Assembly (NCBI RefSeq): GCF_042660085.1
Contig: NZ_JBHSTI010000002.1
Location: 390,001-422,000, forward strand
DNA length: 32,000 bases
Direction: 5' to 3'
Origin: Longivirga aurantiaca
Lineage (GTDB): Bacteria > Actinomycetota > Actinomycetes > S36-B12 > CAIYMF01
The number at the start of each line of letters is the position of its first letter. The first letter of the stretch is position 1. Positions 5,700 through 23,449 of this stretch are shown one piece after another. The translations under genes and the position numbers were made by a program. The notes under the pieces are model-generated. The model saw only the letters and a list, made by a program, of their open reading frames with translations. It did no database searches and was not told the origin of the DNA.

Positions 5700-5712
5700 G
5701 CGTACGCCGGGC

Positions 5713-7191: not shown

Positions 7192-7207
7192 CTATAAACG
7201 TTTCCAA
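7192..7207. promoter_or_regulatory. candidate operator, copy a of the 16-bp pseudo-palindromic box (ctatAAACGTTTCcaa)
   Basis: AAACGTTT core palindrome with a central CG. On the minus strand it lies immediately downstream of the putative -10. See the finding on the recurrent box. Confidence 0.35.
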
Positions 7208-7236
7208 CCCTAGGCACGCCCGACCCGGGTGGTCAA
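7207..7236 (-). promoter_or_regulatory. putative promoter of the aldehyde dehydrogenase-fbiD operon
   Basis: The minus strand reads TTGACC (7236-7231), an 18-nt spacer, then TAGGGT (7212-7207), which fits the actinobacterial TAnnnT -10 pattern. Hand prediction. Confidence 0.3.
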
Positions 7237-7249
7237 GTGGGGGGTCCAC

Positions 7250-8005: not shown

Positions 8006-8046
8006 GTGGCCTCCTCGGGGCGGGGTCCGGGGCCCAGTATCCCGTT

Positions 8047-8119
8047 TTCGCGCAATGCCTTGACGAGAAGGGTGTCGGAATGATGCAGTTCGCGCAACAA
8101 GTGCGCGATAACGCGCAAC
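8047..8119. promoter_or_regulatory. repeated CGCGCAA elements in the DeoR/glpX divergent region (candidate DeoR operators)
   Basis: TTCGCGCAA at 8047-8055, TTCGCGCAAC at 8089-8098, AACGCGCAAC at 8110-8119, plus an inverted TGCGCGA at 8102-8108. The direct copies start 42 and 21 bp apart. TTGACG at 8059-8064 lies between them. Confidence 0.3.
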
Positions 8120-8141
8120 GGCGAGGACTGGAGAGGTTTCT

Positions 8142-9137: not shown

Positions 9138-9179
9138 TCCGAGGGCCATTGCGGTCCCGCGCGGCGAGCGACTACGGTT

Positions 9180-9195
9180 GATGAAACGTATCTAC
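9180..9195. promoter_or_regulatory. candidate operator, copy b of the 16-bp box (gatgAAACGTATCTAC)
   Basis: It carries the exact 12-mer AAACGTATCTAC (9184-9195), also present at 10175-10186. It sits just after a putative promoter: TTGCGG 9149-9154, 18-nt spacer, TACGGT 9173-9178. Confidence 0.4.
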
Positions 9196-9207
9196 AAAGG
9201 GAGCGTT

Positions 9208-10152
9208 GTGGTCGACCAGCATCCGGCATCAACTGTGGTCGTGGTCGGCGCGCTCAACGTCGACGCCGTCGTACGGGCGCCGCGGCTGCCTGCTCCCGGA
9301 GAGACGGTGGTCGGGCCGCATGTCACCTGGCACGGCGGGGGTAAGGGCGCCAATGCCGCGGTGGCCGCGGCGCGTGCCGGGGCTCGCACCCAGCTCATCG
9401 GCGCTGTCGGCGCCGATGACCAGGGCCGGTCCACGCTGCGCGAGCTGGCAGCCGAGGGAGTGGACATCGGTGGCGTCGCCAGCCTGGACGACTCCGCCAC
9501 CGGGGTGGCGCTGATCGTGGTCGACGCCCAGGCCGAGAACCAGATCGCCGTGGGCCTCGGTGCCAACGCGGACCTCACGCCCGAGTACGTCGCACGCGCG
9601 CTCGAGGGCCGGCTCCACGCGGCCGGGTGCGTCCTGGTCAGCACCGAGATCACCCCGGGCGCGGTCATCGCCGCCGTCGATGCGGCGTCGCGTGCTGGCG
9701 TGCCGGTGATCCTGAACCCGGCGCCCGTGATCGCCGCAGTCGCCCGCTGCATCAGTGGTGCCACCGTGATCACGCCGAACGAGTCCGAGGCGGACCTGCT
9801 CCTCGAGCTGATCGGCGGCAGCACGGGAGGACGTCGCGAAGAGCGGTGGAGCGAGCTGGCCGAGCGTGCCGCAGCGTCCGTCGTGGTCACGCTCGGATCG
9901 GAGGGCGTGGCGGTGGTGCAGCCGGGGGAGCCGGTGGTGGTGGTCCCCGCCCGCTCCGTGAGCGCGGTCGACACGACCGGTGCGGGGGACACGTTCAACG
10001 GCGTCCTCGCCGCGCGGGTGGCCGCGGGCGACGACCTGAGGGAGGCCGTGGCCTTCGCGGTGGCTGCGGCGAGCCTCTCGGTGACGCGCGCCGGCGCTCG
10101 TGGGGGCATGCCGACCTTCGATGCCATCGCCGCGTTCAGCGGACGCGGTTGA
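9208..10152 (+). CDS. rbsK: ribokinase
   Basis: PfkB-family motifs: GALNVDAVV, GGKGANAAVAAARAG, DTTGAGDTFNG. I prefer GTG 9208 (AAGGGAG 4 nt upstream) over the track start at 9178, which would place the AT-rich box inside the coding sequence. Confidence 0.85.
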   Translation: MVDQHPASTVVVVGALNVDAVVRAPRLPAPGETVVGPHVTWHGGGKGANAAVAAARAGARTQLIGAVGADDQGRSTLRELAAEGVDIGGVASLDDSATGVALIVVDAQAENQIAVGLGANADLTPEYVARALEGRLHAAGCVLVSTEITPGAVIAAVDAASRAGVPVILNPAPVIAAVARCISGATVITPNESEADLLLELIGGSTGGRREERWSELAERAAASVVVTLGSEGVAVVQPGEPVVVVPARSVSAVDTTGAGDTFNGVLAARVAAGDDLREAVAFAVAAASLSVTRAGARGGMPTFDAIAAFSGRG

Positions 10153-10186
10153 CACGTCGCCGCACGCATACTATAAACGTATCTAC
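10149..10186 (+). promoter_or_regulatory. putative promoter plus operator copy c upstream of the cupin operon
   Basis: TTGACA (10149-10154, overlapping the rbsK stop), 17-nt spacer, TATAAA (10172-10177). Box ctatAAACGTATCTAC at 10171-10186 overlaps the -10 and the predicted transcription start. Confidence 0.4.
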
Positions 10187-10245
10187 TCTGACCCGTGCCA
10201 GGTGAGCTGCGGGCATCGTCCGCGCCGAGCGATCAGGAGACCGCC

Positions 10246-10698
10246 ATGAGCCAGTACGACCCCGATGCGCCGATGGCGCAGAGGTACCCGCGGGTCACCA
10301 CGCCCGAGCAGATGGATGCCGCGCCGCGGCTGAAGTTCAACGACGGGATCTACACCAACATCTTCATCTCGGCCGAGGGCGAGGACGCCCGCTACTTCCG
10401 GCACGGCATCTGCTACGCCGAGCCCGGTCACAAGACCTATCGCTGGGAGCAGTGGGGCTTCGACGAGTCGCACTTCGTCCTCGAGGGCAAGGTGCGCCTG
10501 CGGGTCGAGGACGCCGACGGGCGCGTCATCTACCTCGAGGCGACGGCGGGCGAGCACATCTTCCTGCCGGCCGGCTACATCTACGAGCTCGAGGACACCG
10601 GTGGCATGAAGTTCTACTGGACCAGCGGGCCGTCCAACCGCAACGGCCTCGTCGAGGTCCCCGACTACAGCGCGACGCTGCGCGCGCAGAGGAGCTGA
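10246..10698 (+). CDS. cupin-domain protein, unknown function
   Basis: ATG 10246 preceded by AGGAGA. The 150-aa product has a cupin-like beta-barrel core (FVLEGKVRLRVEDADGRVIYLEATAGEHIFLPAGY). Confidence 0.7.
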   Translation: MSQYDPDAPMAQRYPRVTTPEQMDAAPRLKFNDGIYTNIFISAEGEDARYFRHGICYAEPGHKTYRWEQWGFDESHFVLEGKVRLRVEDADGRVIYLEATAGEHIFLPAGYIYELEDTGGMKFYWTSGPSNRNGLVEVPDYSATLRAQRS

Positions 10699-10703
10699 CC
10701 CCG

Positions 10704-11219
10704 ATGGCGATCACTGCCAGCACGACCAACCCGTTGAAGGGGGCCAAGCGCTGGGCCTACCTGGCGCGTGCCACGACGATCCGCGTCGCGACCGTCAACG
10801 ACGACGGCTCCCTCTACCTGACTCCGCTCTGGTTCGTCGTGCGCGATCAGCGCATCTTCCTGCCGCTCGACGCCGGCGGCCGTCACGGCAAGAACGGCAC
10901 GTCGGGCCGCCCCGTCTCGGCGCTGGTCGACTCCGGCGACGAGTTCGTGACCGTCGCGGGCGTCCGGATCCTGGGCCGGCTCGAGGCCGTCAACGACGAG
11001 AACGCCCACGGCGAGCTCGAGGCCCTCATGTTCGACAAGTACTTCTACGAGGGCCACCCCTACGCCCACCGCTACTTCGAGTTCGGCGAGTTCGCCGGTC
11101 GCGTCTACTACGAGCTCGTCGTCGACAAGCTCATCGGGTGGGACTCGCGCGAGACGACGGTGTCGGACACGCCCGAACGGCGGAGCCTGCCCGCCCACAT
11201 CGGCGATCGGCTGGTGTGA
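10704..11219 (+). CDS. pyridoxamine 5'-phosphate oxidase-like split-barrel flavin/deazaflavin-binding protein
   Basis: 171-aa ORF starting 5 nt after the cupin stop. ATTIRVATVNDDGSLYLTPLWFV is typical of the PNPOx-like/FDOR fold. The cofactor (FMN or F420) cannot be told from sequence. Confidence 0.75.
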   Translation: MAITASTTNPLKGAKRWAYLARATTIRVATVNDDGSLYLTPLWFVVRDQRIFLPLDAGGRHGKNGTSGRPVSALVDSGDEFVTVAGVRILGRLEAVNDENAHGELEALMFDKYFYEGHPYAHRYFEFGEFAGRVYYELVVDKLIGWDSRETTVSDTPERRSLPAHIGDRLV

Positions 11220-11221
11220 GC

Positions 11222-11980
11222 ATGGCAACGGGGCTTCGGGTCCTGGTCGTCGGAGAGTCCTGGATCAAGCACACGATCCACATGAAGGGCTTCGACCAGT
11301 TCCACAACACGTCCTACGAGGAAGGCGCCGGCGTCTTCCTCGATGCGCTGGACGCGAGCGGGTTCGACGTGACGTACATCCGTGCGCACGAGGTCTCGTC
11401 GCGCTTCCCCACCACGATGGAGGAGCTCCAGGCTTTCGACGTGGTCGTGGTGAGCGACGTCGGGTCGAACACCTTCCTGCTCTGCGACGAGACGTTCCTC
11501 AGGTCGGAGAGGGCTGTGAACCGGCTCGAGCTCCTGGCCGACTACGTCCGCGCAGGCGGAGGGCTCGTCATGGTCGGCGGCTACCTCACGTTCACGGGCA
11601 TCGACGGCAAGGGTCGCTACGGGATGTCGCCGCTGGCTGACGTGCTTCCGTGCACCCTCATGCCGACCGACGATCGCGTGGAGAAGCCGCAGGGTGTGAC
11701 GCCGTCGTTCGACGACCTCGCCCACCCGCTGCTCTCCGCAGCACCCACGCCCTGGCCCGACCTGCTGGGCTACAACCGCATGACCCCGAACCCGGGAACC
11801 GACGTCGTGGCGCGGGTAGGTGATGACCCGCTGGTCGTTCTGGGACAGGTAGAGTCGGGCCGCTCGGCCGTCTTCACGTCGGACCTCGCACCTCACTGGG
11901 CGCCACCGGAGTTCCTCGAATGGTCCGGGTACCGCCCCCTGTGGGAGGCGTTGCTGACCTGGACGGCCGGCAAGTCCTAA
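11222..11980 (+). CDS. class-I glutamine amidotransferase-like protein (DUF1355 / putative GATase family)
   Basis: 252-aa ORF starting 2 nt after the previous stop. VLVVGESW..H.KGFD, VVVVSDVGSNTFLL, GGGLVMVGGYLTFTGIDGKGRY and FTSDLAPHWAP match my memory of the PF07090-type family. Confidence 0.7.
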   Translation: MATGLRVLVVGESWIKHTIHMKGFDQFHNTSYEEGAGVFLDALDASGFDVTYIRAHEVSSRFPTTMEELQAFDVVVVSDVGSNTFLLCDETFLRSERAVNRLELLADYVRAGGGLVMVGGYLTFTGIDGKGRYGMSPLADVLPCTLMPTDDRVEKPQGVTPSFDDLAHPLLSAAPTPWPDLLGYNRMTPNPGTDVVARVGDDPLVVLGQVESGRSAVFTSDLAPHWAPPEFLEWSGYRPLWEALLTWTAGKS

Positions 11981-12006
11981 GAGCGCCTCACGTCGGAAGG
12001 CTCACC

Positions 12007-13047
12007 GTGGCCGAGAGCAGGACCAGGCCCACCATGAAGGATGTGGCTCGGCATGCATCCGTCTCGGTGAGCACGGTCTCCTACGTCCTGAACGGGACCG
12101 GCCCGGTCAGCCAGGAGCGCCGCGAGCGGGTGCTCGAGGCCGTCAAGATGCTCAGCTACACGCCCAACGAGGCGGCGCGCGGTCTGCGGCAGCGCAGCGC
12201 GCCGACGGTGGGGCTGATCGTCCCGGACCTGACCAACCCCTACTTCGCCATGATCGCCGAGGGAGTGGAGCGGTACTCCTCGGAACGCGATGCCCTGGTC
12301 GTCCTGTGCGCCCCCGAGGTCGCGGGAACCAGTTCGAGCGAGCCGACGACCACCCGGCTCCTGCGCAGCCAGCGGCTCTCGGGGTGCATCTTCCTGTCCG
12401 GCGCATCGGCCGTGCCGCGGTCGCTCATGGAGCTGACCGAGCTCGGGCCCGTCGTGCTCGTGGACGAGCTGCTCCCCGGCTTCGGCCTCCCCGCAGTCGT
12501 GTCCGACAACCGCTCGGGTGCGCGTGCCGTGGCCGCGCATGTGCTGTCCATGGGTCACCGCCGGGTCGGCATCATCGGCGGCCCCTCGACGTTGTGGTCC
12601 TCGCACCAGAGGCTTGCCGGCTACCGGGAGGCGTTTGCGTCGGGCGGCATCGAGCCGGACTCGATCCCGCTGGAGGTCGGCGACTACCGCCAGGAGTCCG
12701 GCTTCGACGCCGCTCGGCTGCTCATGGCACGCTCCGCGGGCTCCGACCGCATCACCGCGCTCGTGTGCGCCAACGACCTGATGGCCGTCGGCGCCATCGA
12801 GTACCTCCGCTCGCAGTCCCTCCGCGTGCCCGAGGACGTCAGCGTGGTCGGGTTCGACGACGTGCCGTTCGCGCGCTCTCTCACGCCGCGCCTCACCACC
12901 GTGCGACAGCCGGCGCACGACATGGGTGCTCGGGCCGCCGAGCTGCTGTTCTCGCTCCTCGAGAACCCCGACATGTCGCCCCCCGACTACGAGCCGCTCC
13001 CCGTCGAGCTCATGGTCCGCGACTCGGTGCAGCCCCCCCGGGCCTAG
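12007..13047 (+). CDS. LacI-family transcriptional regulator
   Basis: N-terminal HTH (TMKDVARHASVSVSTVSYVLNG, YTPNEAARGLR) and a periplasmic-binding-protein-like effector domain (VVGFDDVPFA). GTG 12007 has GGAAGG 6 nt upstream. Alternative start: ATG 12034. Confidence 0.9.
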   Translation: MAESRTRPTMKDVARHASVSVSTVSYVLNGTGPVSQERRERVLEAVKMLSYTPNEAARGLRQRSAPTVGLIVPDLTNPYFAMIAEGVERYSSERDALVVLCAPEVAGTSSSEPTTTRLLRSQRLSGCIFLSGASAVPRSLMELTELGPVVLVDELLPGFGLPAVVSDNRSGARAVAAHVLSMGHRRVGIIGGPSTLWSSHQRLAGYREAFASGGIEPDSIPLEVGDYRQESGFDAARLLMARSAGSDRITALVCANDLMAVGAIEYLRSQSLRVPEDVSVVGFDDVPFARSLTPRLTTVRQPAHDMGARAAELLFSLLENPDMSPPDYEPLPVELMVRDSVQPPRA

Positions 13048-13159
13048 CGCACACCTCCCGTGCACCGCGACGGTCGCATCCGACGAGCGCTCGCGTGCTC
13101 GGACGCGCCGCGGTGTCGGCGGCATCGCCCCAATTTACCCAAACGTAGCGCGCAGGGTC

Positions 13160-13188
13160 TTGACGCGTCGACTAGAACCGTTAATAGT
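13160..13188 (+). promoter_or_regulatory. putative nadV promoter
   Basis: TTGACG (13160-13165) followed 16-17 nt later by TAATAGT (13182-13188), in a locally AT-rich stretch. This predicts a leader of about 100 nt. Confidence 0.3.
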
Positions 13189-13251
13189 TGCCCCAGTGCT
13201 TCAGGGCCACTGCTGCTCTAACCCCCTTCGCTGTAGGCGATTCCGCACTCT

Positions 13252-13272
13252 GAGTCGAAATAGAAACGACTC
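13252..13272 (+). promoter_or_regulatory. leader hairpin next to the nadV ribosome-binding site
   Basis: GAGTCG (13252-13257), loop aaatagaaa, CGACTC (13267-13272). It ends 3 nt before the SD AAGGAGG (13276-13282). Confidence 0.35.
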
Positions 13273-13292
13273 AACAAGGAGGTGCCCTCCCC

Positions 13293-14747
13293 ATGGGCCG
13301 GAGTTCTGCGTTCGACAACATCATCATCAACACGGACAACTACAAGCACTGTCACTACTCGCTGTACCCGCCGGGCACCGAGTACGTGTCGAGCTACATC
13401 GAGTCCCGGGGTGGAGAGTTCCCGTCGACGATGTTCGTCGGCCTGCAGGCCTTCATCCGCGAGTACTTGATGCACCCGATCACCCTCGAGGACATCGACG
13501 AGGCGGAGTTCATCGTCCGCGAGCAGGGTATGCACTTCAACCGTGACAACTGGATGGGCATCCTCAACGACCACGGCGGCTTCCTGCCCGTCGAGATCGA
13601 GGCGGTGCCCGAGGGCACGGTCCTGCCGCCCCGCAACGTTCTCGTGCAGCTCATCAACACCGACCCCAAGTACTTCTGGGTGACGAGCTTCTTCGAGACC
13701 GCCCTGCTCCGTGCGGTGTGGTACCCGACGACCATCGGCTCGATCTCGTGGCTGTCCAAGCAGGTCATTCGCGAGGCCCTGGACAAGACGTCGGACAACC
13801 CGCAGCTGCTGCGCTACATGCTCCACGACTACGGCGCACGTGGAGTGAGCTCGCAGCAGTCGGCGTCGCTGGGCGGTCTCGCCCACCTGGTGAACTTCGA
13901 CCAGAGCGACACCGTCCCCGGCATCCTCGCCGCGAAGAAGTACTACAACGCGCAGAAGGTCTCGAACTCCGGTCCCAACTCCGAGCACGCAGGATTCTGC
14001 GCCTGGGGTCAGGAGCACGAGGCCGCGGCCATGAAGAACATGCTCGAGACGTACAAGGACAACGGCGTCGTCCTTCTGCTCACCGACACCTATGACCACG
14101 AGCACGCGGTCAAGCACATCATCGGCGGCGAGCTCAAGGAGATGGTGGAGAACTTCCCCGGGCTCGTGGGCATCCGTCCCGACTCGGGCGACGTCGTCCA
14201 GGTCACGTCGGACACCACCGAGTGGCTGATGGACATCTTCGGCTACACCACGAACAGCAAGGGCTACAAGGTCCTCCCGAACTTCGTGCGCGTCGTGCAG
14301 GGTGACGGTGTCACCTTCTACTCGCTGCCCGAGGTCTACATGGAGATGGAGCGCCGCGGCCTCTCGACCGAGAACGCCGTGTTCGGCATGGGTGGGGGCC
14401 TGCTCCAGCACCACAACCGTGACACGATGAACTTCGGCCAGAAGGCGAGCTCCGTCCGGATCAACGGCGAGTGGCGGGACATCGCCAAGTCGCCCACGGG
14501 GTCGGAGTTCAAGGTCTCGAAGAAGGGGCGTCTGGCTCTGGTCCACAAGGACGGCGAGTGCGCCACCGTCCTGCGCGACAGCGTCGCGCCGGAGGAGAAC
14601 CTGCTCAAGCCGGTGTTCCGCAACGGGCAGCTGCTCAAGAAGTGGGACTTCACCGAGCTCATCGAGCGGAGCGAGCAGCCCGTGCCGGAGTCGTACTACC
14701 TGGACATCGTCGCGAAGATGCGCGAATCGTTCAACCGGGCGAAGTGA
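13293..14747 (+). CDS. nadV: nicotinamide phosphoribosyltransferase (NAMPT/NadV)
   Basis: 484-aa ORF. The N-terminal NIIINTDNYKHCHY (TDxYK motif), the length, and HDYGARGVSS / RPDSGD segments are typical of NadV. Confidence 0.9.
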   Translation: MGRSSAFDNIIINTDNYKHCHYSLYPPGTEYVSSYIESRGGEFPSTMFVGLQAFIREYLMHPITLEDIDEAEFIVREQGMHFNRDNWMGILNDHGGFLPVEIEAVPEGTVLPPRNVLVQLINTDPKYFWVTSFFETALLRAVWYPTTIGSISWLSKQVIREALDKTSDNPQLLRYMLHDYGARGVSSQQSASLGGLAHLVNFDQSDTVPGILAAKKYYNAQKVSNSGPNSEHAGFCAWGQEHEAAAMKNMLETYKDNGVVLLLTDTYDHEHAVKHIIGGELKEMVENFPGLVGIRPDSGDVVQVTSDTTEWLMDIFGYTTNSKGYKVLPNFVRVVQGDGVTFYSLPEVYMEMERRGLSTENAVFGMGGGLLQHHNRDTMNFGQKASSVRINGEWRDIAKSPTGSEFKVSKKGRLALVHKDGECATVLRDSVAPEENLLKPVFRNGQLLKKWDFTELIERSEQPVPESYYLDIVAKMRESFNRAK

Positions 14748-14758
14748 GCAGCTAGCGG

Positions 14759-15436
14759 ATGACTGACGACGGAACCGGCCAGCAGGCGCGCGCGCTCCAC
14801 GTCTTCGACATGGACGGCACCCTGCTGGCCGGCTCCGCGTGCTTGGATCTCTCAGCCCGTGCCGGCTACCTCTCCTCGGTGGAGGAGATGGAGGACGCGT
14901 GGGGCCGCGGCGAGATCGGTCACGTGGAGTTCTACGACCTGCTGATCCCGCTGTGGTCCGAGCTCACTCACGAGGATGTCGACGAGACCTTCGCCAAGGC
15001 GGGGTGGATCGAGGGTCTTCGCGAGGTGCTCGCGGACATCCGCAGCCGTGGTGAGCGCAGCGCCGTCGTCTCCCTGTCGCCGCACTTCTTCGTGCGGCGG
15101 CTGCAGGCATGGGGCCTCGACTACGCCTACGGCGCCGGAGTCGAGATCGGGGAACCGGTTCTCCCAGAACGGGTGTACGTCCCCGAGACCAAGGTGACCG
15201 TCGTGGCCGACCTCCTCGCAGAGCTGCGGCTCGGCGCGGACCGGTGCGTCGTGTACGGGGACTCGTCCTCCGATGTTCCGCTCTTCCAGCGGTTCCCCAA
15301 CAGCATCGCCGTCAATGCGAGCAGCTCCTTGCTGCCCTTCGCGCACGTCACCTACGAAGGCCCGGACCTCGCGAGCGCGTACGCCCTCGGGCGTTCGCTG
15401 CTGGGGGACGAGGCCGAGGAGCCCCCCCAGCCATGA
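14759..15436 (+). CDS. HAD-superfamily hydrolase (HAD-IB / phosphoserine-phosphatase-like), substrate unknown
   Basis: 225-aa ORF with motif I FDMDGTLL, motif II-like VVSLSP, and motif IV YGDSSSDVPLF. Confidence 0.8.
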   Translation: MTDDGTGQQARALHVFDMDGTLLAGSACLDLSARAGYLSSVEEMEDAWGRGEIGHVEFYDLLIPLWSELTHEDVDETFAKAGWIEGLREVLADIRSRGERSAVVSLSPHFFVRRLQAWGLDYAYGAGVEIGEPVLPERVYVPETKVTVVADLLAELRLGADRCVVYGDSSSDVPLFQRFPNSIAVNASSSLLPFAHVTYEGPDLASAYALGRSLLGDEAEEPPQP

Positions 15437-16461
15437 GCCCGACCAGCAGCGCCACGCTGCTCCCACCCGGCCACCGGATCCCCGTCGCGCACCGCGACAT
15501 GAAGATCTTCGGAGGGCGGTCGAACCCCCGGCTGGCGGAGGAGATCGGGGTCCGTCTCGGTGTCGGTCTCAGCCCCGTGACGCTGCGCTCGTTCTCCGGC
15601 GGGGAGGTCTACTGCCGATACGAGGAGTCGATCCGCGGCTCGGACGTCTTCCTCATCCAGTCGCTGAGCGCGAACGCCGAGTCGGGCATCGGGACGAACG
15701 ATGCTCTGGCAGAGCTGCTCGTGATGATCGATGCAGCGAAGGGTGCCAGCGCGCACAGGGTGACCGCGGTCGTCCCATGGTTCGGCTACTCGCGCCAGGA
15801 CAAGAAGAGCGCAGCCCGCGAACCGATCAGCGCCCGCCTGATGGCGCGGATCCTGGAAGCCTCAGGCGCCGACCGCGTGCTGACGATGGATCTGCACGCA
15901 CCACAGATCCAGGGGATGTTCCAGATCCCGGTGGATCACATGACTGCCTCGTTGGCGCTCAGCGACCACATCCTGCAGCTGCAGCTCCAGGACGACCTCG
16001 TGGTGGTCGCCCCGGATGCTGGTCGCGGCAAGCATGCACGGGCGTTCGCGACCATGGTGGGTGCAGGCTTCGCCATCCTGGACAAGCAGCGGCCGGCCCA
16101 GCAGCAGGCCGAGATCGGTTACGTCATCGGAGACGTCGAAGGCAAGACCGCGATCGTGGTCGACGACATCATCGACACTGCCGGCACCATCCGGGCGGCG
16201 GCAGACGCGGTGCTCGGTGCGGGGGCCAACCGCGTCCATGTGGTTGCCACGCACGGGGTCTTCAGCGGCAAGGCGTACGAGAACATCGCCTCGTCGGGCG
16301 TCGAGCGGTTCTTCGTGACCGACACGATCGCCGCACCGCCCGGCGTTCCGCCGAACGTCGAGATCATCTCGTGCGCCGACGTGCTCGCCGAGTCGATGGT
16401 GCAGATCTTCACGTGCGGATCGGTGAGCGCGGTCTTCCGAGGCCACAACCATGTCTACTGA
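15433..16461 (+). CDS. prs: ribose-phosphate pyrophosphokinase (PRPP synthase)
   Basis: ATG 15433 overlaps the HAD stop (ATGA). Canonical class I Prs motifs: FSGGEV, PWFGYSRQDKK, MDLHAPQIQGMFQIPVDH, VVDDIIDTAGT, THGVFSG. Alternative start: ATG 15499 (MKIFGG). Confidence 0.9.
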   Translation: MSPTSSATLLPPGHRIPVAHRDMKIFGGRSNPRLAEEIGVRLGVGLSPVTLRSFSGGEVYCRYEESIRGSDVFLIQSLSANAESGIGTNDALAELLVMIDAAKGASAHRVTAVVPWFGYSRQDKKSAAREPISARLMARILEASGADRVLTMDLHAPQIQGMFQIPVDHMTASLALSDHILQLQLQDDLVVVAPDAGRGKHARAFATMVGAGFAILDKQRPAQQQAEIGYVIGDVEGKTAIVVDDIIDTAGTIRAAADAVLGAGANRVHVVATHGVFSGKAYENIASSGVERFFVTDTIAAPPGVPPNVEIISCADVLAESMVQIFTCGSVSAVFRGHNHVY

Positions 16462-16662
16462 CCCGGCGGATGCAGCTCGCCACGTAGGTCGCAGCAGCCA
16501 CCCTCCCCTCGTGGCCGTCCGTCCGGCCATGCCCGGCCTGGGACTGGCCCTCCTGGCCGTGCGTGGTGCCGCCACTGCGTCGCCAGCGCGGGCCCGACTG
16601 TTCCCAGCCATGGCTCTGGGGCTGCGCCGTCGTCGCGCCGTCCGACCGGGGTGACCCCCGCG

Positions 16663-17613
16663 ATGAGGCTCGTGATCGACACCGACACGGCGAGCGACGA
16701 CGCCGTCGCGCTGATGCTCGCGTCAGCGGCAGACGTGACTATCGAGGCGGTCACGATCGTCGCCGGCAACGTCCCCGTGGAGCTCGGCAGCAGGAACGCC
16801 CTGTCCGCTCTCGAGTTCTGGGGCGTCGACGTCCCGGTCTACGTCGGTGAGACGCGACCGCTCGCCCGCCCGCTCCAGACTGCCCAGCACGTTCACGGTC
16901 CTGACGGGATGGGCGACTCGCAGCTCCCCGCTCCTCGGCGGGTGCCGCGTGACCCGGACGCGGTCGACGTCCTCGTCGACATCCCCACCCGTGACCCCGG
17001 CGCCGTCACCCTCGTGACGCTCGGTCCCTTCACGAACCTCGCCAGAGCCCTCGAGCGCGACCCGGCATGTCTAGGGAAGTACCGGGCCATCTACTGCATG
17101 GCCGGCACCCTCGGCCGGGGCAACATCACGCAGCAGGCGGAGTACAACCTCTGGTGCGACCCTGAGGCCGCCGCCCTCGTGCTGGATTCCGGGATCCCGT
17201 TGACCTTCATCGGCTGTGACGCCGCGCGGGACTTCACCGGACTCTCGAGCGACCGGCTCGATCGTTGGCATTCGCTGGCGTCACCGCGCGCCGACTTCGC
17301 CATCGCCGTCACGCGCGGGGCGGTGCGCTGGTACAGCGACCGCGGCCTGCGCGGCAGCGCCGACCTCCCCGATCCCCTCGCGATGGCGGTGGCGCTGGAT
17401 CCAGCCATCGTGACACGGTCGGAGACCGTCCATGCGAGCGTCGCACTCGACGACAGCCTGCGCGGGAAGCTGGTGATCCATCCGGACTCCGCGCCGGTTC
17501 GCAGGTCAGTGACGATGGTGACCGAGGTGGACGCAGACGCGTTCTGGTCGAGGGTCGACTCCATGGTCGCGGGCCACGATGAGCCCTCCGCCTCCGGCGG
17601 CGCTACCCGCTGA
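16663..17613 (+). CDS. nucleoside hydrolase (inosine/uridine-preferring family)
   Basis: N-terminal aspartate cluster MRLVIDTDTASDDAVALMLA (DxDxxxDD) and the expected length. Alternative start: GTG 16651. Confidence 0.85.
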   Translation: MRLVIDTDTASDDAVALMLASAADVTIEAVTIVAGNVPVELGSRNALSALEFWGVDVPVYVGETRPLARPLQTAQHVHGPDGMGDSQLPAPRRVPRDPDAVDVLVDIPTRDPGAVTLVTLGPFTNLARALERDPACLGKYRAIYCMAGTLGRGNITQQAEYNLWCDPEAAALVLDSGIPLTFIGCDAARDFTGLSSDRLDRWHSLASPRADFAIAVTRGAVRWYSDRGLRGSADLPDPLAMAVALDPAIVTRSETVHASVALDDSLRGKLVIHPDSAPVRRSVTMVTEVDADAFWSRVDSMVAGHDEPSASGGATR

Positions 17614-17622
17614 GGTGATCGA

Positions 17623-18000
17623 TCAGGGGGCGTCGCCCAGCACCTTGCGGTAGGTGTCCTTGACCGCGATGCGGTCTCCTTCGAACTCGAACACGTCGAC
17701 GGCTCTCGTGATGACGGGACGGCCGTCCGGGGCCGAGTCGCGCGCGGTCCACCGGACGACGCCGAAGCTGTCGCCGGTGGTGATCTCCAGCTGCTCGGTG
17801 GTGCCTGCCGGAGGGTTCGCGGGGTCGAGCAGTCTGGCGTAGGCCCCGCGCACGGCCGCAGCGCCGGTGAACGTCGTCCCGGGCTCGGGGCCGATCGAGG
17901 AGCGGAAGACGCAGGTCTCGGTCATGAGCTCCATGAGCGCGTCCACGTCGCGCCTGGCCCAGGCGTCGATGAACTGCTCGAGGACCCTGTGCTCGTCCAC
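17623..18000 (-). CDS. SnoaL-like / NTF2-fold protein
   Basis: 125-aa ORF with GGAGG upstream. The FIDAWARRDVDALMELMTETCVF pattern is typical of SnoaL-like domains. Confidence 0.7.
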   Translation of the reverse strand: MDEHRVLEQFIDAWARRDVDALMELMTETCVFRSSIGPEPGTTFTGAAAVRGAYARLLDPANPPAGTTEQLEITTGDSFGVVRWTARDSAPDGRPVITRAVDVFEFEGDRIAVKDTYRKVLGDAP

Positions 18001-18013
18001 CGTACCTCCGAGA

Positions 18014-18103
18014 GTAATCGTTTCGTGCTTTCCTGCCCGACTAGGCCGCTACGGCTTGAAAGACAGCGTGAATCGACTCTAGCATAGAGGTCGAAACGAT
18101 TAC
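18014..18103. repeat. perfect 12-bp inverted repeat pair GTAATCGTTTCG / CGAAACGATTAC
   Basis: Arms at 18014-18025 and 18092-18103 are exact reverse complements separated by 66 bp. They bracket the putative fgd promoter. Confidence 0.8.
18056..18085 (+). promoter_or_regulatory. putative fgd promoter
   Basis: TTGAAA (18056-18061), 18-nt spacer, TAGCAT (18080-18085). The predicted start falls on the right arm of the inverted repeat. Confidence 0.35.
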
Positions 18104-18188
18104 GGTATTCGTATCCGGCCCTCGGTCCCGTCGCGACGACGGGGCGCGGGCAGGCGGCGACCGTCCACGAGACCTCGAGGAGCACCGC

Positions 18189-19190
18189 ATGACGATCCGC
18201 ATCGGGTACAAGGCCTCTGCCGAGCAGTTCGACCCGAGGGAGCTGCTCCAGGTCTCCGTGGTGGCGGAGGAGTCGGGCTTCGACGTGGTGGGGGTGTCGG
18301 ACCACTTCCAGCCGTGGCGGCACAACGGCGGTCACTCGCCGGCGGTGATCCCGTGGCTCGGCGCGATGACCCAGGCGACGAGTCGCGTCGCCCTCGGCAC
18401 GAGCGTGATGACGCCGATGCTCCGGTACCACCCCTCGATCGTCGCCCAGTCGTTCGCGACGTTGAACTCGCTCGCACCGGGTCGCATCTTCCTCGGGATC
18501 GGGACGGGCGAGGCGATGAACGAGGTGCCGGCGACGGGTGCGGAGTTCCCGGCGCCCAAGGAGAGGCGGCTGCGCATGGCCGAGGCGGTCGAGCTCATGC
18601 GGCGGTTGTGGTCGGAGGAGCGGGTGGACTTCGAAGGCGAGTACTACCGCACGGAGAAGGCCACGGTGTACGACCGGCCGGAGACGCCGATCCCGGTGTT
18701 CTTCGCGGCATCCGGACCGCTGGCAGCCAAGCTCGCCGGTCGGACGGGTGACGGCTTCATCTGCACGAGCGGCAAGGCCCCCGAGCTGTACGAGACGTTG
18801 CTGGAGAACGTCGCTGCCGGTGCGACCGAGGCTGGGCGCGACGTCAGCGACATCCGGCGGATGATCGAGGTCAAGGTCTCGTACGACCATGATCTGGACT
18901 ACGCATACGAAGCGTGCGGGTTCTGGGCTGCGCTCTCGCTCTCGAGCGAGCAGAAGACGGGCATCGAGGATCCGCTGGAGATGGAGCGGGTCGCGGACGC
19001 CAACATCGCCAACGCGCACACCCGCTTCATCGTGTCGAACGATCCCGAAGAGGTGGCGGCTCGCATCAAGCCGTACCTCGACCTGGGGTTCCAGGACCTC
19101 GTCATCCATGCGCCGGGGCACGACCAGCGTCGGTTCCTGAAGCAGTTCAGCGCCGACGTGCTGCCTCTGCTGCGGGGTGCGGGGAGTTGA
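18189..19190 (+). CDS. fgd: F420-dependent glucose-6-phosphate dehydrogenase
   Basis: 333-aa ORF with GAGGAG upstream. It looks colinear with my memory of M. tuberculosis Fgd1: GYKASAEQF.PRELL, SDHFQPWRH.GGH, GTGEAMNE, GDGFICTSGK, HAPGHDQRRFL. Confidence 0.9.
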   Translation: MTIRIGYKASAEQFDPRELLQVSVVAEESGFDVVGVSDHFQPWRHNGGHSPAVIPWLGAMTQATSRVALGTSVMTPMLRYHPSIVAQSFATLNSLAPGRIFLGIGTGEAMNEVPATGAEFPAPKERRLRMAEAVELMRRLWSEERVDFEGEYYRTEKATVYDRPETPIPVFFAASGPLAAKLAGRTGDGFICTSGKAPELYETLLENVAAGATEAGRDVSDIRRMIEVKVSYDHDLDYAYEACGFWAALSLSSEQKTGIEDPLEMERVADANIANAHTRFIVSNDPEEVAARIKPYLDLGFQDLVIHAPGHDQRRFLKQFSADVLPLLRGAGS

Positions 19191-20674
19191 CTCCGACGCC
19201 GCCTGCGGATGGCGTCCTCGGCCGGGAGCCGGTCGACGTCCTCCGTGCCTGGCGCCTCGGTCGCGGCTGGGCTCCGCACGACGCCGCTCGCAGTCTCGGC
19301 GCGAGCACCGCGGAGTACCTCGCGTGGGAGTCGGGGACGGAGGAGATCCCCGATGCCGCGCGGCTCCTGCTGGGCCGTCGCCTCGGCGTACCGGCGTCCG
19401 CCGCACTGCCGACCGCCGCGCGCCGGTGGCGCGTCGATGCCGCGGCAGAGGACGGATGCGCCAGCCTGGCGTCGTTGCTCGCCTCATGGCGCGCGAACGA
19501 GGGGCTCACCCAGAGTGCCGCAGCGGGTCTGCTGGGGGTGTCCTCCGGCGCGGTGGGCCGCTGGGAGCGTGGGACGGTTCCCTCCCCCCAGGTCCTGGCC
19601 CGGCTGGCGGCGCTGTGGTCGGTGGACCGGGCGGTGCTGCGCGCAGCTGCCGGCCCCGATCCGATTCGCCGTGCGTCCAGCACCGAGAGCAGCGACGCCA
19701 CCCCGCTGGTGCTGGCCCGCCTCGACCGGGGCATCAGCCAGGCAGAGCTGGCGCGACGGCTCTCGATCGGCCAGGCGACGCTGTCCCGATGGGAGAGCGG
19801 CGAACGCACACCGCATCGTCTTGACGTGCTGCGGATCGCGCAGGCGCTCGGCATGCCTCCGCAGACGGCGGTCTCACTGTTCGAGGCCTACCGCCCGCAC
19901 CGCCGGCAGTTCGCCGGCAGGCTGCCGGGCTTGGCGCTGCTCCTGGCCGCTCGTGGTGTCGACGAGCAGGCTGCGGCCTGCGTTCTGGGAGTGAGCGATG
20001 CGGCCTTGCGGGACTGGGTGCGGGGTGCTCGTCCAGTCCCGGTGGTTGTCATCGACGGCCTGAGCGCTCTCGTCGGCCAGGACCTGTGGCCGAATCTCCC
20101 GGAGCTGCGCCGACCGCTTCGCACCGCCCCGGCACCGCCTGTCTCGGCGCTGGCGGCGAGGCGGCAGCAGCTCGGGATCACCCAACGTCAGCTGGGCCGT
20201 CACCTGGGAGCCAGCCAGACCACCATCTCCGCGTGGGAGGCGGGGGCACGTCCGGGCAGGTCCTGGCATGCACCCCTCGCGCGGGCCCTGCGATGGGACG
20301 TCGAGAGCCTCTGCTCGGCTCTGGGTGTCAAGGAGCCGACGCGGCCCGACGTGACGAGGTGCGGGCCCGGGGATCTCCCCGCGGTCCTACGGGATCTGCG
20401 CGAGTCGTCAGGCCTGTCGCGCGCCCAGCTCGGCCGATGCGTCGGGGTCGATCCGCGCACCGTCGGCAAGTGGGAGTCCGGCGCTGGCCGACCCTCGGCC
20501 CGGAGCCTGCTCCGGCTGGCTGCGCTGTTCGGAGTGCCGAGCCAGCACCTGGCACGGCTGCGCGGGGGTGGCGGCGAGGCCTGGCGCGCAGACGCCGATC
20601 GCCGGACGGCGGTGCGTGCCCGCCCAGACTCGGTGGGCGCGCGGATCACGGCGCTCGCGGCTCGGGCCGGCTAG
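19187..20674 (+). CDS. protein made of six tandem XRE (Cro/C1)-type helix-turn-helix modules
   Basis: This is the 3' part of track ORF 18914..20674. The only start upstream of module 1 is TTG 19187, which overlaps the fgd stop (TTGA). Six repeats carry the signature W-E/V-x-G: approx. nt 19235-19393, 19463-19639, 19703-19876, 19928-20077, 20138-20320, 20375-20554. Confidence 0.75.
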   Translation: MTPTPPADGVLGREPVDVLRAWRLGRGWAPHDAARSLGASTAEYLAWESGTEEIPDAARLLLGRRLGVPASAALPTAARRWRVDAAAEDGCASLASLLASWRANEGLTQSAAAGLLGVSSGAVGRWERGTVPSPQVLARLAALWSVDRAVLRAAAGPDPIRRASSTESSDATPLVLARLDRGISQAELARRLSIGQATLSRWESGERTPHRLDVLRIAQALGMPPQTAVSLFEAYRPHRRQFAGRLPGLALLLAARGVDEQAAACVLGVSDAALRDWVRGARPVPVVVIDGLSALVGQDLWPNLPELRRPLRTAPAPPVSALAARRQQLGITQRQLGRHLGASQTTISAWEAGARPGRSWHAPLARALRWDVESLCSALGVKEPTRPDVTRCGPGDLPAVLRDLRESSGLSRAQLGRCVGVDPRTVGKWESGAGRPSARSLLRLAALFGVPSQHLARLRGGGGEAWRADADRRTAVRARPDSVGARITALAARAG

Positions 20675-20801
20675 GACGTCGGCTTCGCGGTCGCGGGCCC
20701 CGGCGTCGCGGAGCGCGTGCGGCCCTCCCGCCGACCTGCTGGTTCATGAGGGTGCGCTGGAACGCCCGCACGTTCTAGTCCCGCGTGTGGTTTCTCGCAA
20801 G

Positions 20802-20817
20802 CTTGTTACGTTTCTAC
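20802..20817. promoter_or_regulatory. candidate operator, copy g of the 16-bp box (cttgTTACGTTTCTAC)
   Basis: It shares ACGT(A/T)TCTAC with copies b and c. It lies in the AT-rich region upstream of the Amt-like gene, about 45 bp upstream of the predicted -35. Confidence 0.3.
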
Positions 20818-20828
20818 TATCAGTACGA

Positions 20829-20852
20829 CAGCATTTCCTCTTGAAAATGCTG
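20829..20852. promoter_or_regulatory. 8-bp inverted repeat CAGCATTT / AAATGCTG
   Basis: Arms at 20829-20836 and 20845-20852, with an 8-nt spacer. It ends 6 nt before the -35 hexamer. Confidence 0.35.
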
Positions 20853-20858
20853 AAGGTA

Positions 20859-20886
20859 TTGACGTACTGGACCTGTTCATCATAAT
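20859..20886 (+). promoter_or_regulatory. putative promoter of the Amt-like gene
   Basis: TTGACG (20859-20864), 16-nt spacer, CATAAT (20881-20886). This is the best sigma-70-like match I found in the window, about 80 nt upstream of the ATG. Confidence 0.45.
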
Positions 20887-20968
20887 CGGTTCCACTCGCT
20901 GCACCGCACATCGGAAGGCAGCGCTCGGCGTCCGGACGAAGATCCGGGCCAGACCGCGAGGAGCCCCT

Positions 20969-22369
20969 ATGGAAGCCCCGTTCTTCCCGGACCAGGTGAC
21001 TGATCACCTGTTCCTGCTCGACTTCTTCTACGGAGTCGCCACCGTGTGCCTGATCCTCATCGTGGGAGCGGTGGGCCTGATCGACGGGGGGCTGGTCCGC
21101 CGCAAGAACACCCTCGACAACTGGGTGCAGAAGATCGTCGTGGCCCTAATCGGCGCCGGGTGCATGTGGCTCATCGGCTATGCGATCTGGCAGGTGCAGT
21201 TCTACGAAGCGTTCGGGGTCCCGAACCCGATCTCCTCGGCCATCAAGGACTGGTGGGCGCTCGGGACGAACGCCCAGACGTTCTCCCAGCAGCTCGACCC
21301 CGCCGTGGCGCCTGAGGCCGACGTCTTCCAGATCTTCATGGCCTTCTTCATGGCCTATGCCGCAGTCGGGGCCGTGCTGATCCACTCCGCGGGCCTCGAG
21401 CGCGTCAAGGCTGCGCCGATGTACGTGATGGGGGCCATCGCCGGCGGTCTGGTGATCCCCATCGCGCTCTACTTCACGTGGGGGTCGCTGAGCCCGTTGA
21501 CGAACAACGGACTCCACGACTACATCGGGGTCTACTCCCTGTACATCGTCGTCGGGGTGTGGGCGCTGATCCTGGCCTGGCGGGCCGGTCCCCGGCTCGG
21601 AGCCTTCGCACCTCACGACAGGACGATGGGTCCGATCCCGCACAACTTCGGGTTCTCCGGGCTCGGCATCGCGCTGCTCATGTTCGCTGCGCCGTTCGCC
21701 TTCCTCGGCTGCGGCTACTGGATCGGTGATCTTGGCTACTTCGGCATCTCGATGACCACCAGCGGGTTCGGCATCGCCATGCTCAACGTCTTCGTGAGCT
21801 ACATCGGCGGCGGGCTCGCGGGTGCGCTGATCGCGTACCGCACCAAGAACCCGCTCTTCGCGCTGATCGGTGTGGCCGCCGGCTACATCAGCGCCGGCGC
21901 GTGCCTCGACATCGCCAAGCCGTGGCAGACCTTCGTGGTGTCGTTCGTCGGGACGTTCGTCGTCTTCGGCACCTACAAGCTGCTCCACCGGTTGCGCATC
22001 GACGACAAGAAGATCGTGCCGCTGGCCCTCGGGGGCGGCATCTTCGGCGCGCTCGCCGCGGGCGTGGTCGGGGCCGGCATGAAGACTGGCGGATTCTTCG
22101 GGCTCGAGGGCGAGTACGTCTTTCAGGGCGCGACGATCAGCCTCGGGATGCAGGCGCTGGGCGTCGTCCTCACGGTGGCGTTCGCCGCCGTTACGGGCCT
22201 CATCGTGATCGTCGGCCTCGAGAAGACGATCGGCCTCCGGGTGGAGGAGCACGAGGAGCTCAAGGGTCTCGACGACCACTACTGGGAGACTCCTACGTCG
22301 CCGTACCACGACGAGCCGGTCGAGGTCGTCGACGCACGGGGATCGCGGCCCACCGCCGAGACCGACTAG
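20969..22369 (+). CDS. ammonium transporter (Amt/Mep/Rh) family membrane protein, divergent
   Basis: 466-aa polytopic ORF with GAGGAG upstream. Amt landmarks: GLIDGGLVRRKN, SAGLERVK, FTWG, AGPRLGAF..PHN, RIDDKK, and the C-terminal GLRVEEHEELKGLDDHYWE. The positions I align to AmtB His168 and His318 read Tyr192 and Leu354. Confidence 0.85.
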   Translation: MEAPFFPDQVTDHLFLLDFFYGVATVCLILIVGAVGLIDGGLVRRKNTLDNWVQKIVVALIGAGCMWLIGYAIWQVQFYEAFGVPNPISSAIKDWWALGTNAQTFSQQLDPAVAPEADVFQIFMAFFMAYAAVGAVLIHSAGLERVKAAPMYVMGAIAGGLVIPIALYFTWGSLSPLTNNGLHDYIGVYSLYIVVGVWALILAWRAGPRLGAFAPHDRTMGPIPHNFGFSGLGIALLMFAAPFAFLGCGYWIGDLGYFGISMTTSGFGIAMLNVFVSYIGGGLAGALIAYRTKNPLFALIGVAAGYISAGACLDIAKPWQTFVVSFVGTFVVFGTYKLLHRLRIDDKKIVPLALGGGIFGALAAGVVGAGMKTGGFFGLEGEYVFQGATISLGMQALGVVLTVAFAAVTGLIVIVGLEKTIGLRVEEHEELKGLDDHYWETPTSPYHDEPVEVVDARGSRPTAETD

Positions 22370-22402
22370 CTCGGACGGCGTCGCGGCAAGAAACGCCGCA
22401 CC

Positions 22403-22441
22403 AAGGGAGGGCGGCCGGTCGTGGACCGGCGGCCCTCCTTT
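22403..22441 (+). terminator. intrinsic terminator-like hairpin after the Amt-like gene
   Basis: 18-position stem (one G-G mismatch, one G-U pair) with a 3-nt loop: AAGGGAGGGCGGCCGGTC gtg GACCGGCGGCCCTCCTTT. It starts 34 nt after the stop. The distal arm ends in TTT. Confidence 0.5.
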
Positions 22442-22645
22442 GTCGTCAGGCCCCTGCTCGCAGCCGCGTCCGACCCGGCCGATCCGCGTCGAGCGGAACA
22501 CCGCGGTGGAGGCGTATCGCTGCTCTCCCCAGCAAGGCGGCGTACGGGAGCGAGTGGGTGCTACTCAGGCCCTTGTGCGCCGGCTGCGATGAAGTCGTCC
22601 CAGGCACGCGGCGACCGCCACGTCACGGACGGAGGAAGTGCAGTC

Positions 22646-23041
22646 ATGGGTCTGTTCCAGCAGATGAAGGATCTCAAGGGATTCGTCGCCGCAGCGCCGG
22701 AGATGATCGCGGAGGCGCAGCCGCTGCAGGCCGCTGCCCAGCGGTACGGCGCCGTCACGGCCGGTAGCGCACCGGTGATGGGGATGCCGACCGCCGCGGC
22801 GATCGACCCCGCCGACCTCCGCCTGGTGCCGATCGAGGGCGTCAGCATTGATATGTACGCGCGGATCGCGAAGGTGGCCGCGGCCGGCGTCGACCGTGCC
22901 TCCCTCGTCGGGTACGCCGCCGGCCTCGGCATCCGCGAGCAGGCGTGGGACTCGGCGTCGTTCCAGTGGAACGAGCGCATGCGCGGCGACATGCCGCTCG
23001 CCGTGCACTTCGGCAACCTCTACCGGTCGGTGTCGGTCTGA
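22646..23041 (+). CDS. hypothetical protein (131 aa)
   Basis: ATG 22646 preceded by GGAGGAAG. Third codon positions are very G/C-rich. N-terminus MGLFQQMKDLKGF. I recognised no family. Confidence 0.6.
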   Translation: MGLFQQMKDLKGFVAAAPEMIAEAQPLQAAAQRYGAVTAGSAPVMGMPTAAAIDPADLRLVPIEGVSIDMYARIAKVAAAGVDRASLVGYAAGLGIREQAWDSASFQWNERMRGDMPLAVHFGNLYRSVSV

Positions 23042-23439
23042 TGGGCTTCCTCAACGACCTGCTCACCCTCAACCGGCAGGCGAACGAGATCCGCGCCCAG
23101 CACGACCCTGTGGCGAAGGCGCAGGCGCAGTCTGGGCGCGGGTCGATGCGGGCCGCGCGCGTCGCGATGCAGTCCGCCACAGCCGTTGCGACCGACGCGT
23201 CGGCGAGGTCCGGGTGCGCGACGGTGCTCCGCGTCGTCGACACCTGCCTGCGCGTCGGGCGCCACCCGGTCGCGGAGATCGACCTGCTCGTCGACGTCGA
23301 CGGGCGCCTGCCGTTCCCGGCACGGGTCCGCACGGGCGTCCCCCTCGGCGGCGCCGGCCAGGCAGAGCTGGGCGCGCTGGTCGCCGTACGCGTCGTGGGC
23401 GAGTCGGTGGCCGTGCTCTGGGGCGTGCCCGCCCGCTGA
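23041..23439 (+). CDS. hypothetical protein (132 aa)
   Basis: The ATG overlaps the previous stop (TGATG at 23039-23043). Third codon positions are very G/C-rich. N-terminus MGFLNDLLTLNRQ, with a beta-rich C-terminal half. I recognised no family. Confidence 0.6.
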   Translation: MGFLNDLLTLNRQANEIRAQHDPVAKAQAQSGRGSMRAARVAMQSATAVATDASARSGCATVLRVVDTCLRVGRHPVAEIDLLVDVDGRLPFPARVRTGVPLGGAGQAELGALVAVRVVGESVAVLWGVPAR

Positions 23440-23449
23440 GCCCGGAGCG

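Follow-up and report, generated by a model that had tools for sequence, protein, structure and literature searches.

We analyzed a 32,000-nucleotide (nt) stretch of the Longivirga aurantiaca genome (contig NZ_JBHSTI010000002.1, positions 390,001 to 422,000; hereafter the window, whose numbering we use throughout). One of its genes, here called HTHx6, encodes a chain of six tandem XRE-type helix-turn-helix (HTH) domains, M1 to M6. Comparison with related genomes identifies HTHx6 as a single real gene under purifying selection, and its product belongs to a family of collinear XRE arrays. The scales tip slightly toward reading the protein as a low-abundance regulator that would bind DNA sequence-specifically at several sites, with its position beside fgd, the gene for F420-dependent glucose-6-phosphate dehydrogenase, being the outcome of a recent insertion or deletion (indel).

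The modules begin at residues 15, 94, 173, 249, 321, and 397, a spacing of 72 to 79 amino acids (aa), and the W-E/V-x-G signatures occupy residues 46-50, 125-129, 201-205, 276-280, 349-353, and 428-432. Over its whole length, the protein scored 172.5 bits against Pfam HTH_3 and 148.1 bits against HTH_31. When the modules were scanned singly, M2, M3, M5, and M6 passed the gathering thresholds of HTH_31/HTH_3 (35 to 52.6 bits); M1 and M4 fell below the Pfam cutoff at about 15 bits each, yet in register with the same families. Both sequence score and fold place the protein in the XRE/Cro-C1 superfamily (HTH_3, PF01381; HTH_31, PF13560). We conclude that the six domains are real, four of them canonical (M2, M3, M5, M6) and two degenerate (M1, M4). 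A preliminary description of this DNA had proposed six tandem XRE modules in the open reading frame (ORF) at 19187-20674 and a count of domain hits with hmmscan; coordinates, motifs, Pfam, and AlphaFold2 all agree with that proposal.

The protein has a mass of 52 kDa, a pI of 11.4, and an arginine content of 13%. In M2, M3, M5, and M6 the net charge ranges from +3 to +7 and the helix 2-turn-helix 3 segment is canonical, whereas the HTH segments of M1 (net charge 0) and M4 (net charge -3) are acidic. The earlier idea of six HTHs reading DNA is sound as to the six folds and probably an overcount as to DNA readers, M1 and M4 being acidic or neutral and degenerate in this clade. The 41-aa tail has no Pfam match. 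It does contain an invariant 17-aa C-terminal helix, RPDSVGARITALAARAG, overlooked when it was stated that no other domain is evident.

Identity between the modules of the window protein is 19 to 35%. We considered a triplet duplication, [M1M2M3][M4M5M6], and rejected it, since the inter-module identities are flat over that range and show no excess for the pairs M1-M4, M2-M5, and M3-M6. Against P0007, a relative with 39% identity, three modules pair with their positional counterparts (M2, 46%; M3, 38%; M6, 50%). The low inter-module identity and this positional pairing indicate that the array is old and has undergone no recent internal duplication.

The structure was predicted twice with AlphaFold2. 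From an alignment of 24 sequences, the mean predicted local distance difference test score (pLDDT) was 80.7 and the predicted template modeling score (pTM) was 0.33; from 86 sequences, the values were 87.7 and 0.52. Both models consist of six five-helix bundles (residues 15-73, 94-155, 173-230, 249-307, 321-379, and 397-459) followed by two C-terminal helices. The pLDDT across the six modules is 85 to 98 (about 77 to 95 for the helices of M1), and all six fold as XRE bundles. With the deeper alignment, the linkers of M3-M6 reach a pLDDT of 86 to 96 and a short strand of the M3-M4 linker pairs with M4. Because pTM and linker pLDDT rise with alignment depth, and because of this strand pairing, the models suggest that the M3-M6 core has a defined arrangement and is more than beads on a string. 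In a Foldseek search of the PDB, only single-domain XRE proteins matched. The P22 c2 repressor aligned with a single module at a root mean square deviation (rmsd) of 1.0 Å over 59 columns, and further matches were C.AhdI, C.BclI, SinR, and CapH; single modules superposed on P22 c2, C.AhdI, and SinR at 1.0 to 1.8 Å. The query-normalized TM-score was at most 0.15 for all of these PDB matches. A PDB sequence search with the window protein returned no match.

Ratios of nonsynonymous to synonymous substitution (dN/dS, or omega) were computed by the Nei-Gojobori method against three relatives, those of loci L002, L001 (after repair of a frameshift, see below), and L033. For the whole gene they were 0.15, 0.20, and 0.22, respectively, and for neighboring genes 0.10 to 0.18. 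By segment, omega was lowest in M5 (0.01 to 0.02), followed by M2 and M3 (0.05 to 0.16) and by M1, M4, and M6 (0.12 to 0.31). The N terminus, linker L12, and residues 460-478 evolve nearly neutrally (0.4 to 1.5). In the last 17 residues dN was 0, with dS of 0.2 to 1.2 against the three relatives. The G+C content at third codon positions (GC3) peaks in the annotated frame at 0.835, below the four flanking genes (0.875 to 0.93), so that an earlier impression of more A/T-ending codons than in the neighbors is modestly true. Separately, the dS of HTHx6 between the window and L001 or L002 was 0.30 to 0.70, about two to three times that of fgd (0.16 to 0.23), as would be expected if HTHx6 had a weaker codon bias or a history of its own.

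Close relatives with 82 to 89% identity have intact ORFs of 495 to 497 aa in at least five independent assemblies, including L033/L034. One relative, P0006 (L001/L003), is frameshifted. It comes from a 1.4-Mb contig of the public metagenome-assembled genome (MAG) MFD02832.bin.1.159 and has a 1-nt deletion at about position 8848 of L001, which corresponds to about 20172 of the window; this produces a chimeric call of 449 aa that is out of frame over its first ~280 aa. After the base was restored, the translation equaled P0002, an intact ORF of a separate assembly, and the frameshift is likely an assembly error or a strain-level lesion. The preliminary description had named several short genes or a frameshifted pseudogene in related genomes as findings that would speak against the gene; close relatives that carry the gene instead have the intact ORF, with this one copy frameshifted.

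Table 1. Positions of HTHx6, its modules, and associated features. Coordinates refer to the window unless a locus is named.
Feature	Coordinates	Strand	Evidence
Six-module XRE array gene (HTHx6), 495 aa, TTG start, TAG stop	19187..20674	+	ORF; Pfam; dN/dS against three relatives; identical 495-aa gene call in P0001
Module M1, aa 15-73, degenerate XRE domain, net charge 0	19229..19405	+	HTH_31 15.8 bits, E=0.018; omega 0.14-0.26; five helices, pLDDT ~77-95
Module M2, aa 94-155, canonical XRE HTH, net charge +3	19466..19651	+	HTH_31 43.4 bits; omega 0.05-0.16
Module M3, aa 173-230, canonical XRE HTH, first of the family's four-module core	19703..19876	+	HTH_3 52.6 bits, HTH_31 48.4 bits
Module M4, aa 249-307, degenerate in this clade (W-V, net charge -3)	19931..20107	+	HTH_31 15.3 bits, E=0.025; pLDDT 93-98
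Module M5, aa 321-379, canonical XRE HTH, strongest constraint, net charge +5	20147..20323	+	HTH_31 41.7 bits; omega 0.01-0.02
Module M6, aa 397-459, canonical XRE HTH, net charge +7	20375..20563	+	HTH_31 50.5 bits
C-terminal 17 aa, invariant helix specific to the close clade	20621..20671	+	dN = 0; predicted helix 483-494; no Pfam hit
TTGA, TTG start overlapping the fgd TGA stop	19187..19190	+	Sequence; L033 GTG at the homologous position, L002 ATG two codons upstream
fgd, F420-dependent glucose-6-phosphate dehydrogenase, upstream gene, probably co-transcribed	18189..19190	+	TIGR03554 436.5 bits vs 420 cutoff; 100% identical to Longivirga aurantiaca protein
Candidate control region of the fgd-HTHx6 unit; perfect 12-nt inverted repeat GTAATCGTTTCG	18014..18103	.	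Arms 18014-18025 and 18092-18103; repeat and promoter scans
TetR genes beside relatives	L023 5231-5953; L024 175-897; L025 137-823; also P0007 contig		

To place the protein among its relatives, a profile built from it and five relatives was searched exhaustively against 1.84 billion representatives. There were 28,069 matches at E ≤ 1e-3, 1,271 at E ≤ 1e-10, and 104 clusters (at 50% identity) at E ≤ 1e-30. Word-indexed searches with the protein or with a 24-sequence profile returned only seven close proteins, their prefilter saturating on HTH words, and a scan of genome contigs gave one full-length relative (the frameshifted MAG copy) and single-HTH noise. The top profile matches are collinear in one stretch, spanning profile positions ~170-457 (300 to 330 aa, four modules) or ~90-455 (380 to 417 aa, five modules); the six-module ones among them (P0009, P0012, P0015, P0019) span ~10-457 and have 474 to 535 aa. 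Modules were counted with an HMM built from the modules themselves. Of the 86 collinear representatives, 47 have M3-M6, 20 have M2-M6, and 8 have M1-M6. The linkers keep a consensus, "AGPDRVRRP" between M2 and M3, "GRLPGL" before M4, and "W..G.LP.VLR.LR" before M6. With at least four consecutive modules in one matched stretch and conserved linkers, the window protein is a member of this collinear family, which is probably mainly actinobacterial.

The family is built on a core of four modules, M3-M6, and longer members extend it at the N terminus, first by M2 and then by M1. M3 has W-E in 78 of 79 family members. M4 has W-E in 63 of 86 relatives, with a median charge of +3, and W-V in the window protein; its degeneration is specific to the window clade. 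Far longer relatives exist, among them proteins with 10, 13, and 34 modules (1,002, 2,332, and 4,162 aa, respectively). The 34-module protein is P0099 (WP_307711370.1, Streptomyces sp. V4I23). As a side observation, the giants, which include P0099, P0020, P0036, and P0072, have 2,000 to 5,640 aa and 8 to 34 tandem XRE modules and appear uncharacterized. Named members carry generic labels, such as "helix-turn-helix domain-containing protein" for Klenkia brasiliensis WP_091068189.1. The suggestion that the six-HTH architecture has no known counterpart survives in part: no characterized protein of such architecture was found in Pfam, NCBIfam, the PDB, or the searched literature, and uniqueness does not hold, given 104 clusters at E ≤ 1e-30 and arrays of up to 34 modules. 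Nothing relevant was found in the literature on fgd together with XRE proteins or on Longivirga. A preprint on a retron "tandem KH-HTH" proved unrelated.

The start of HTHx6 bears on its expression. The preliminary description had correctly named the upstream gene as fgd and noted the TTGA stop/start overlap. It had also stated that no ATG or GTG lies in frame upstream of M1; the frame is in fact open from GTG 18914, its single in-frame NTG besides TTG 19187. We rejected this implausible start because it lies 91 codons inside fgd, which uses another frame there. Between the fgd stop and the first domain, TTG 19187 is the sole in-frame start. L001 and L002 keep TTGA, and L002 has an ATG two codons upstream of the TTG position (ATGGAGTTGA). 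In L033/L034 a GTG stands exactly at the position of the window's TTG, with GAGG ahead of it at a reasonable spacing; there the fgd stop is 15 nt earlier and the called GTG lies 11 nt past it. An alternative GTG five codons upstream in L033 would overlap the fgd stop as GTGA. The GTG in L033/L034 and the ATG in L002 support a start at or near TTG 19187. The window TTG has no well-spaced Shine-Dalgarno (SD) sequence ahead, a GGAG directly abutting it, and initiation by termination-reinitiation is plausible. Since a scan of the window revealed no promoter- or terminator-like site between fgd and HTHx6, the two genes are likely co-transcribed. Three features point to low expression: TTG as start codon, no SD sequence at a suitable distance, and the lower GC3.

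Upstream of fgd, in the intergenic region shared with a SnoaL gene on the minus strand, the inverted repeat GTAATCGTTTCG encloses a promoter-like TTGAAA-N18-TAGCAT at 18056-18085. Its arms are kept with 0 to 1 mismatch in all HTHx6-bearing loci (L001, L002, L033, L034), and the 66-nt spacer varies. The pair looks like a two-site operator for some regulator; its link to the HTHx6 protein is hypothetical.

As a regulator, HTHx6 might work as follows. The four basic canonical heads M2, M3, M5, and M6 would each read one major-groove half-site, possibly acting as two pairs, M2-M3 and M5-M6. One monomer could then replace the dimer or tetramer of ordinary XRE repressors, either by covering a long composite operator or by bridging two sites that lie apart. 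The linkers, conserved and rich in Arg, may help to hold DNA, as proposed for two-HTH monomers (PMC12889037). In this clade, M1 and M4 would serve as spacers or protein-contact modules, and the invariant C-terminal helix as a clade-specific interaction or oligomerization element. If the protein regulates fgd, the two GTAATCGTTTCG 12-mers flanking its promoter would be candidate operators, a lineage-specific wiring.

Several points weigh against a sequence-specific regulator. The DNA target of HTHx6 is still hypothetical. XRE domains also bind proteins, so that for each basic module DNA binding is assumed. Among the relatives, gene neighborhoods show no common theme pointing to a regulon. Genomes without HTHx6 also differ in the upstream neighbor and intergenic region, which confounds the GTAATCGTTTCG correlation, and looser copies of the 12-mer occur in the window only at chance frequency. 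A pTM of 0.52 leaves the overall geometry of the model uncertain. A bolder proposal, which we regard as speculative and unlikely, is that the M3-M6 core, with M2 and M1 optional, represents a class of its own, a "pre-assembled repressor oligomer" made of one chain with fixed geometry, which would read a composite operator of 40 to 60 bp or loop the DNA that separates two sites, for example the inverted 12-mers 78 bp apart, and that the giants of 8 to 34 modules are unrecognized bacterial chromatin or DNA-organizing proteins. The fixed geometry is hinted at by the conserved linkers and by the rise of pTM with alignment depth.

Among the alternatives, the one that survives best, though we doubt it, is a nucleoid-associated or DNA-bridging role with little sequence specificity, in which the many basic heads would coat or cross-link DNA. 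The pI of 11.4, the 13% arginine, the architectural look of family arrays with 8 to 34 modules and up to 5640 aa, and the varied genomic contexts all fit it. However, the modules with the recognition helices are the most constrained, M5 above all, as expected for specific recognition, and the TTG start, the missing well-spaced SD sequence, and a GC3 below that of the neighbors suggest that the protein is scarce, which typical nucleoid proteins are not. The gene is also dispensable, being absent from sister genomes.

Next comes a dedicated fgd regulator, linked to F420 and glucose-6-phosphate and translationally coupled to its neighbor for a fixed enzyme:regulator ratio, which we think improbable. 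HTHx6 either overlaps the fgd stop or follows it after 11 nt in all five loci that carry it, and the GTAATCGTTTCG pair flanks the fgd promoter only in HTHx6-bearing loci. By our estimate, about half of TGA stops would yield such a start overlap by chance. The overlap itself, however, is not conserved, given the earlier fgd stop in L033, and the repeat correlation is confounded by the different upstream neighbor. Locus comparisons speak against a lasting partnership as well. L033/L034, with 97% identity in fgd, remain collinear as far as the HTHx6 stop and then lack window positions 20675-23409, a block that begins exactly after that stop and consists of amt and two hypothetical ORFs. In L028-L032, whose fgd is 90 to 93% identical and otherwise intact, window positions 19175-23446 and 5043-18175 are missing; fgd is followed there by a convergent 128-aa gene, a GGDEF gene, and a DEAD/DUF3516 helicase gene, and tblastn found no remnant of the array. 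In Longivirga-like genomes, HTHx6 thus has the character of an indel next to fgd, 1.5 kb long and confined to this one gene, which is recent and lineage-specific.

Two observations concern the same region. The 13-kb block absent from L028/L031 carries NAD-salvage, phosphoribosyl pyrophosphate (PRPP)-synthetase, and nucleoside-hydrolase genes. In L001, a Transposase_mut (IS256-like) gene at 11264-12520 lies just after amt and is absent there in the window; the region downstream of fgd is an indel hotspot, marked by this transposase insertion.

Distant relatives have other neighbors. The five-module P0007, P0008, and P0010 each lie directly beside a gene for a 228- to 240-aa TetR_N/TetR_C_14 regulator (Table 1), an association that recurs in this subclade and is not seen in the window. 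P0012 is accompanied by dodecin, SDR, enoyl-CoA hydratase, and thiolase genes, and P0011 by a pyridine-nucleotide-disulfide reductase gene. None of the five distant members examined adjoins fgd or another F420 gene. The preliminary description had suggested looking for orthologues beside fgd in related Micrococcales. None of these five is found there, L028-L032 lack the gene, and the taxon was wrong, the window's fgd being 100% identical to that of Longivirga aurantiaca (Sporichthyaceae, Sporichthyales). As for the link to fgd itself, adjacency with an overlap stands within the lineage, and a meaningful functional link does not, in view of the sister genomes without the gene, the distant relatives, and the 11-nt gap in L033. 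The evidence does not support a conserved functional tie to F420 metabolism, and the absence of HTHx6 beside 90 to 93% identical fgd genes, together with the distant relatives, marks the adjacency as a local accident of gene order.

A protein-interaction scaffold, antitoxin-like factor, or decoy, in which XRE domains bind partner proteins and the C-terminal helix docks, seems to us more improbable still. It would account for the non-basic M1 and M4 and for an invariant 17-aa helix unrelated to any HTH. Among the structural matches are the Stl-dUTPase and SinR-SinI complexes, where a repressor of the XRE family is bound to a partner protein, and NCBIfam antitoxin models (MqsA, HipB/Y4mF) were matched. 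Those antitoxin matches, however, cover only the HTH part, and their cutoffs are passed by summed repeats; PADLOC gave only generic matches to the HTH portion. In none of the contexts examined does a toxin-like gene or a conserved partner gene lie alongside, no toxin or phage gene adjoins HTHx6 in the window, and four modules are basic and canonical. Lastly, a decaying paralogue fusion, pseudogene, or over-long ORF, for which one could cite the L001/L003 frameshift, the rare TTG start, and the many spurious long ORFs of high-GC DNA, is refuted by the present evidence, namely, omega of 0.15 to 0.22 with dS up to 0.7, the ORF intact across assemblies, GC3 highest in the HTHx6 frame, a confident fold prediction, and a frameshift of a single deleted base whose repair yields P0002, and we give it almost no credence.

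Farther downstream, a conserved AT-rich block at 20790-20900, upstream of the ammonium transporter gene amt, probably serves to bind a regulator of amt. Within it are an inverted repeat of 8 nt, CAGCATTT/AAATGCTG, at 20829-20852 and a promoter-like TTGACG-N16-CATAAT at 20859-20886. No Rfam RNA family was found in the window.

Textbooks present the XRE/Cro-C1 proteins as the model of how oligomerized single-HTH subunits achieve multivalent recognition of DNA. A conserved family that builds four to six such heads into one chain, with linkers conserved as well, would recognize operators or bridge DNA in a different way. The architecture is unusual and appears uncharacterized; a substantial family already sits in databases, hidden under the label "helix-turn-helix domain-containing protein." For annotation, the adjacency to fgd gives no basis for inferring an F420-related function, and a public long-contig MAG carries HTHx6 as a frameshifted chimera. 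Summed repeat scores are a further hazard, as they exceed NCBIfam cutoffs (MqsA, RstR, HipB-like) and may lead pipelines to misname such proteins. The MqsA antitoxin model (TIGR03830) gave 99.1 bits against a cutoff of 61.8, the sum of four repeats over profile positions ~69-115 (the HTH part), and the protein has no CxxCG motif. RstR (NF041951), covered at profile positions 7-55 of 108, and HipB/Y4mF (TIGR03070) likewise passed only by summing four HTH repeats. We rejected all three assignments.

Ordinary XRE/Cro-C1 repressors have one HTH per chain and gain multivalency by forming dimers or tetramers. P22 c2, 434, and lambda repressor domains, SinR, C.AhdI, and C.BclI share the five-helix fold and HTH signature of each module, and single modules match single-domain XRE proteins in Foldseek at an rmsd of 1.0 to 2.2 Å with 21 to 34% identity. 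The window protein differs from them in having six linked domains and no oligomerization or sensor domain besides the 17-aa helix. Among eukaryotic tandem-HTH monomers, Myb R1R2R3, POU, the Pax paired domain, and CENP-B read adjacent grooves with a linker touching DNA. They belong to unrelated families with two or three units per chain, and the likeness is a functional analogy only, with no homology. The analogy, including linker-DNA contact, is discussed for tandem HTHs in PMC12889037.

Wolbachia Wmk likewise has tandem XRE-type HTH domains on one polypeptide with an inter-domain linker and is modeled as a monomer inserting its HTHs into adjacent major grooves (PMC12889037). Wmk differs in having two domains rather than six and an accessory helical module, and in being prophage-encoded in an endosymbiont; the window protein scored 34.8 bits against a cutoff of 300 for the Wmk model (NF047948), and we did not assign it to that family. 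Its true kin are Klenkia brasiliensis WP_091068189.1 and the metagenomic P0008-P0027, which are collinear with it over M2-M6 or M3-M6 at 26 to 41% identity and have the same linkers and module order. Within this unnamed array family, the window protein represents the minority six-module form (8 of 86), distinguished by a degenerate M4 and a clade-specific C-terminal helix.

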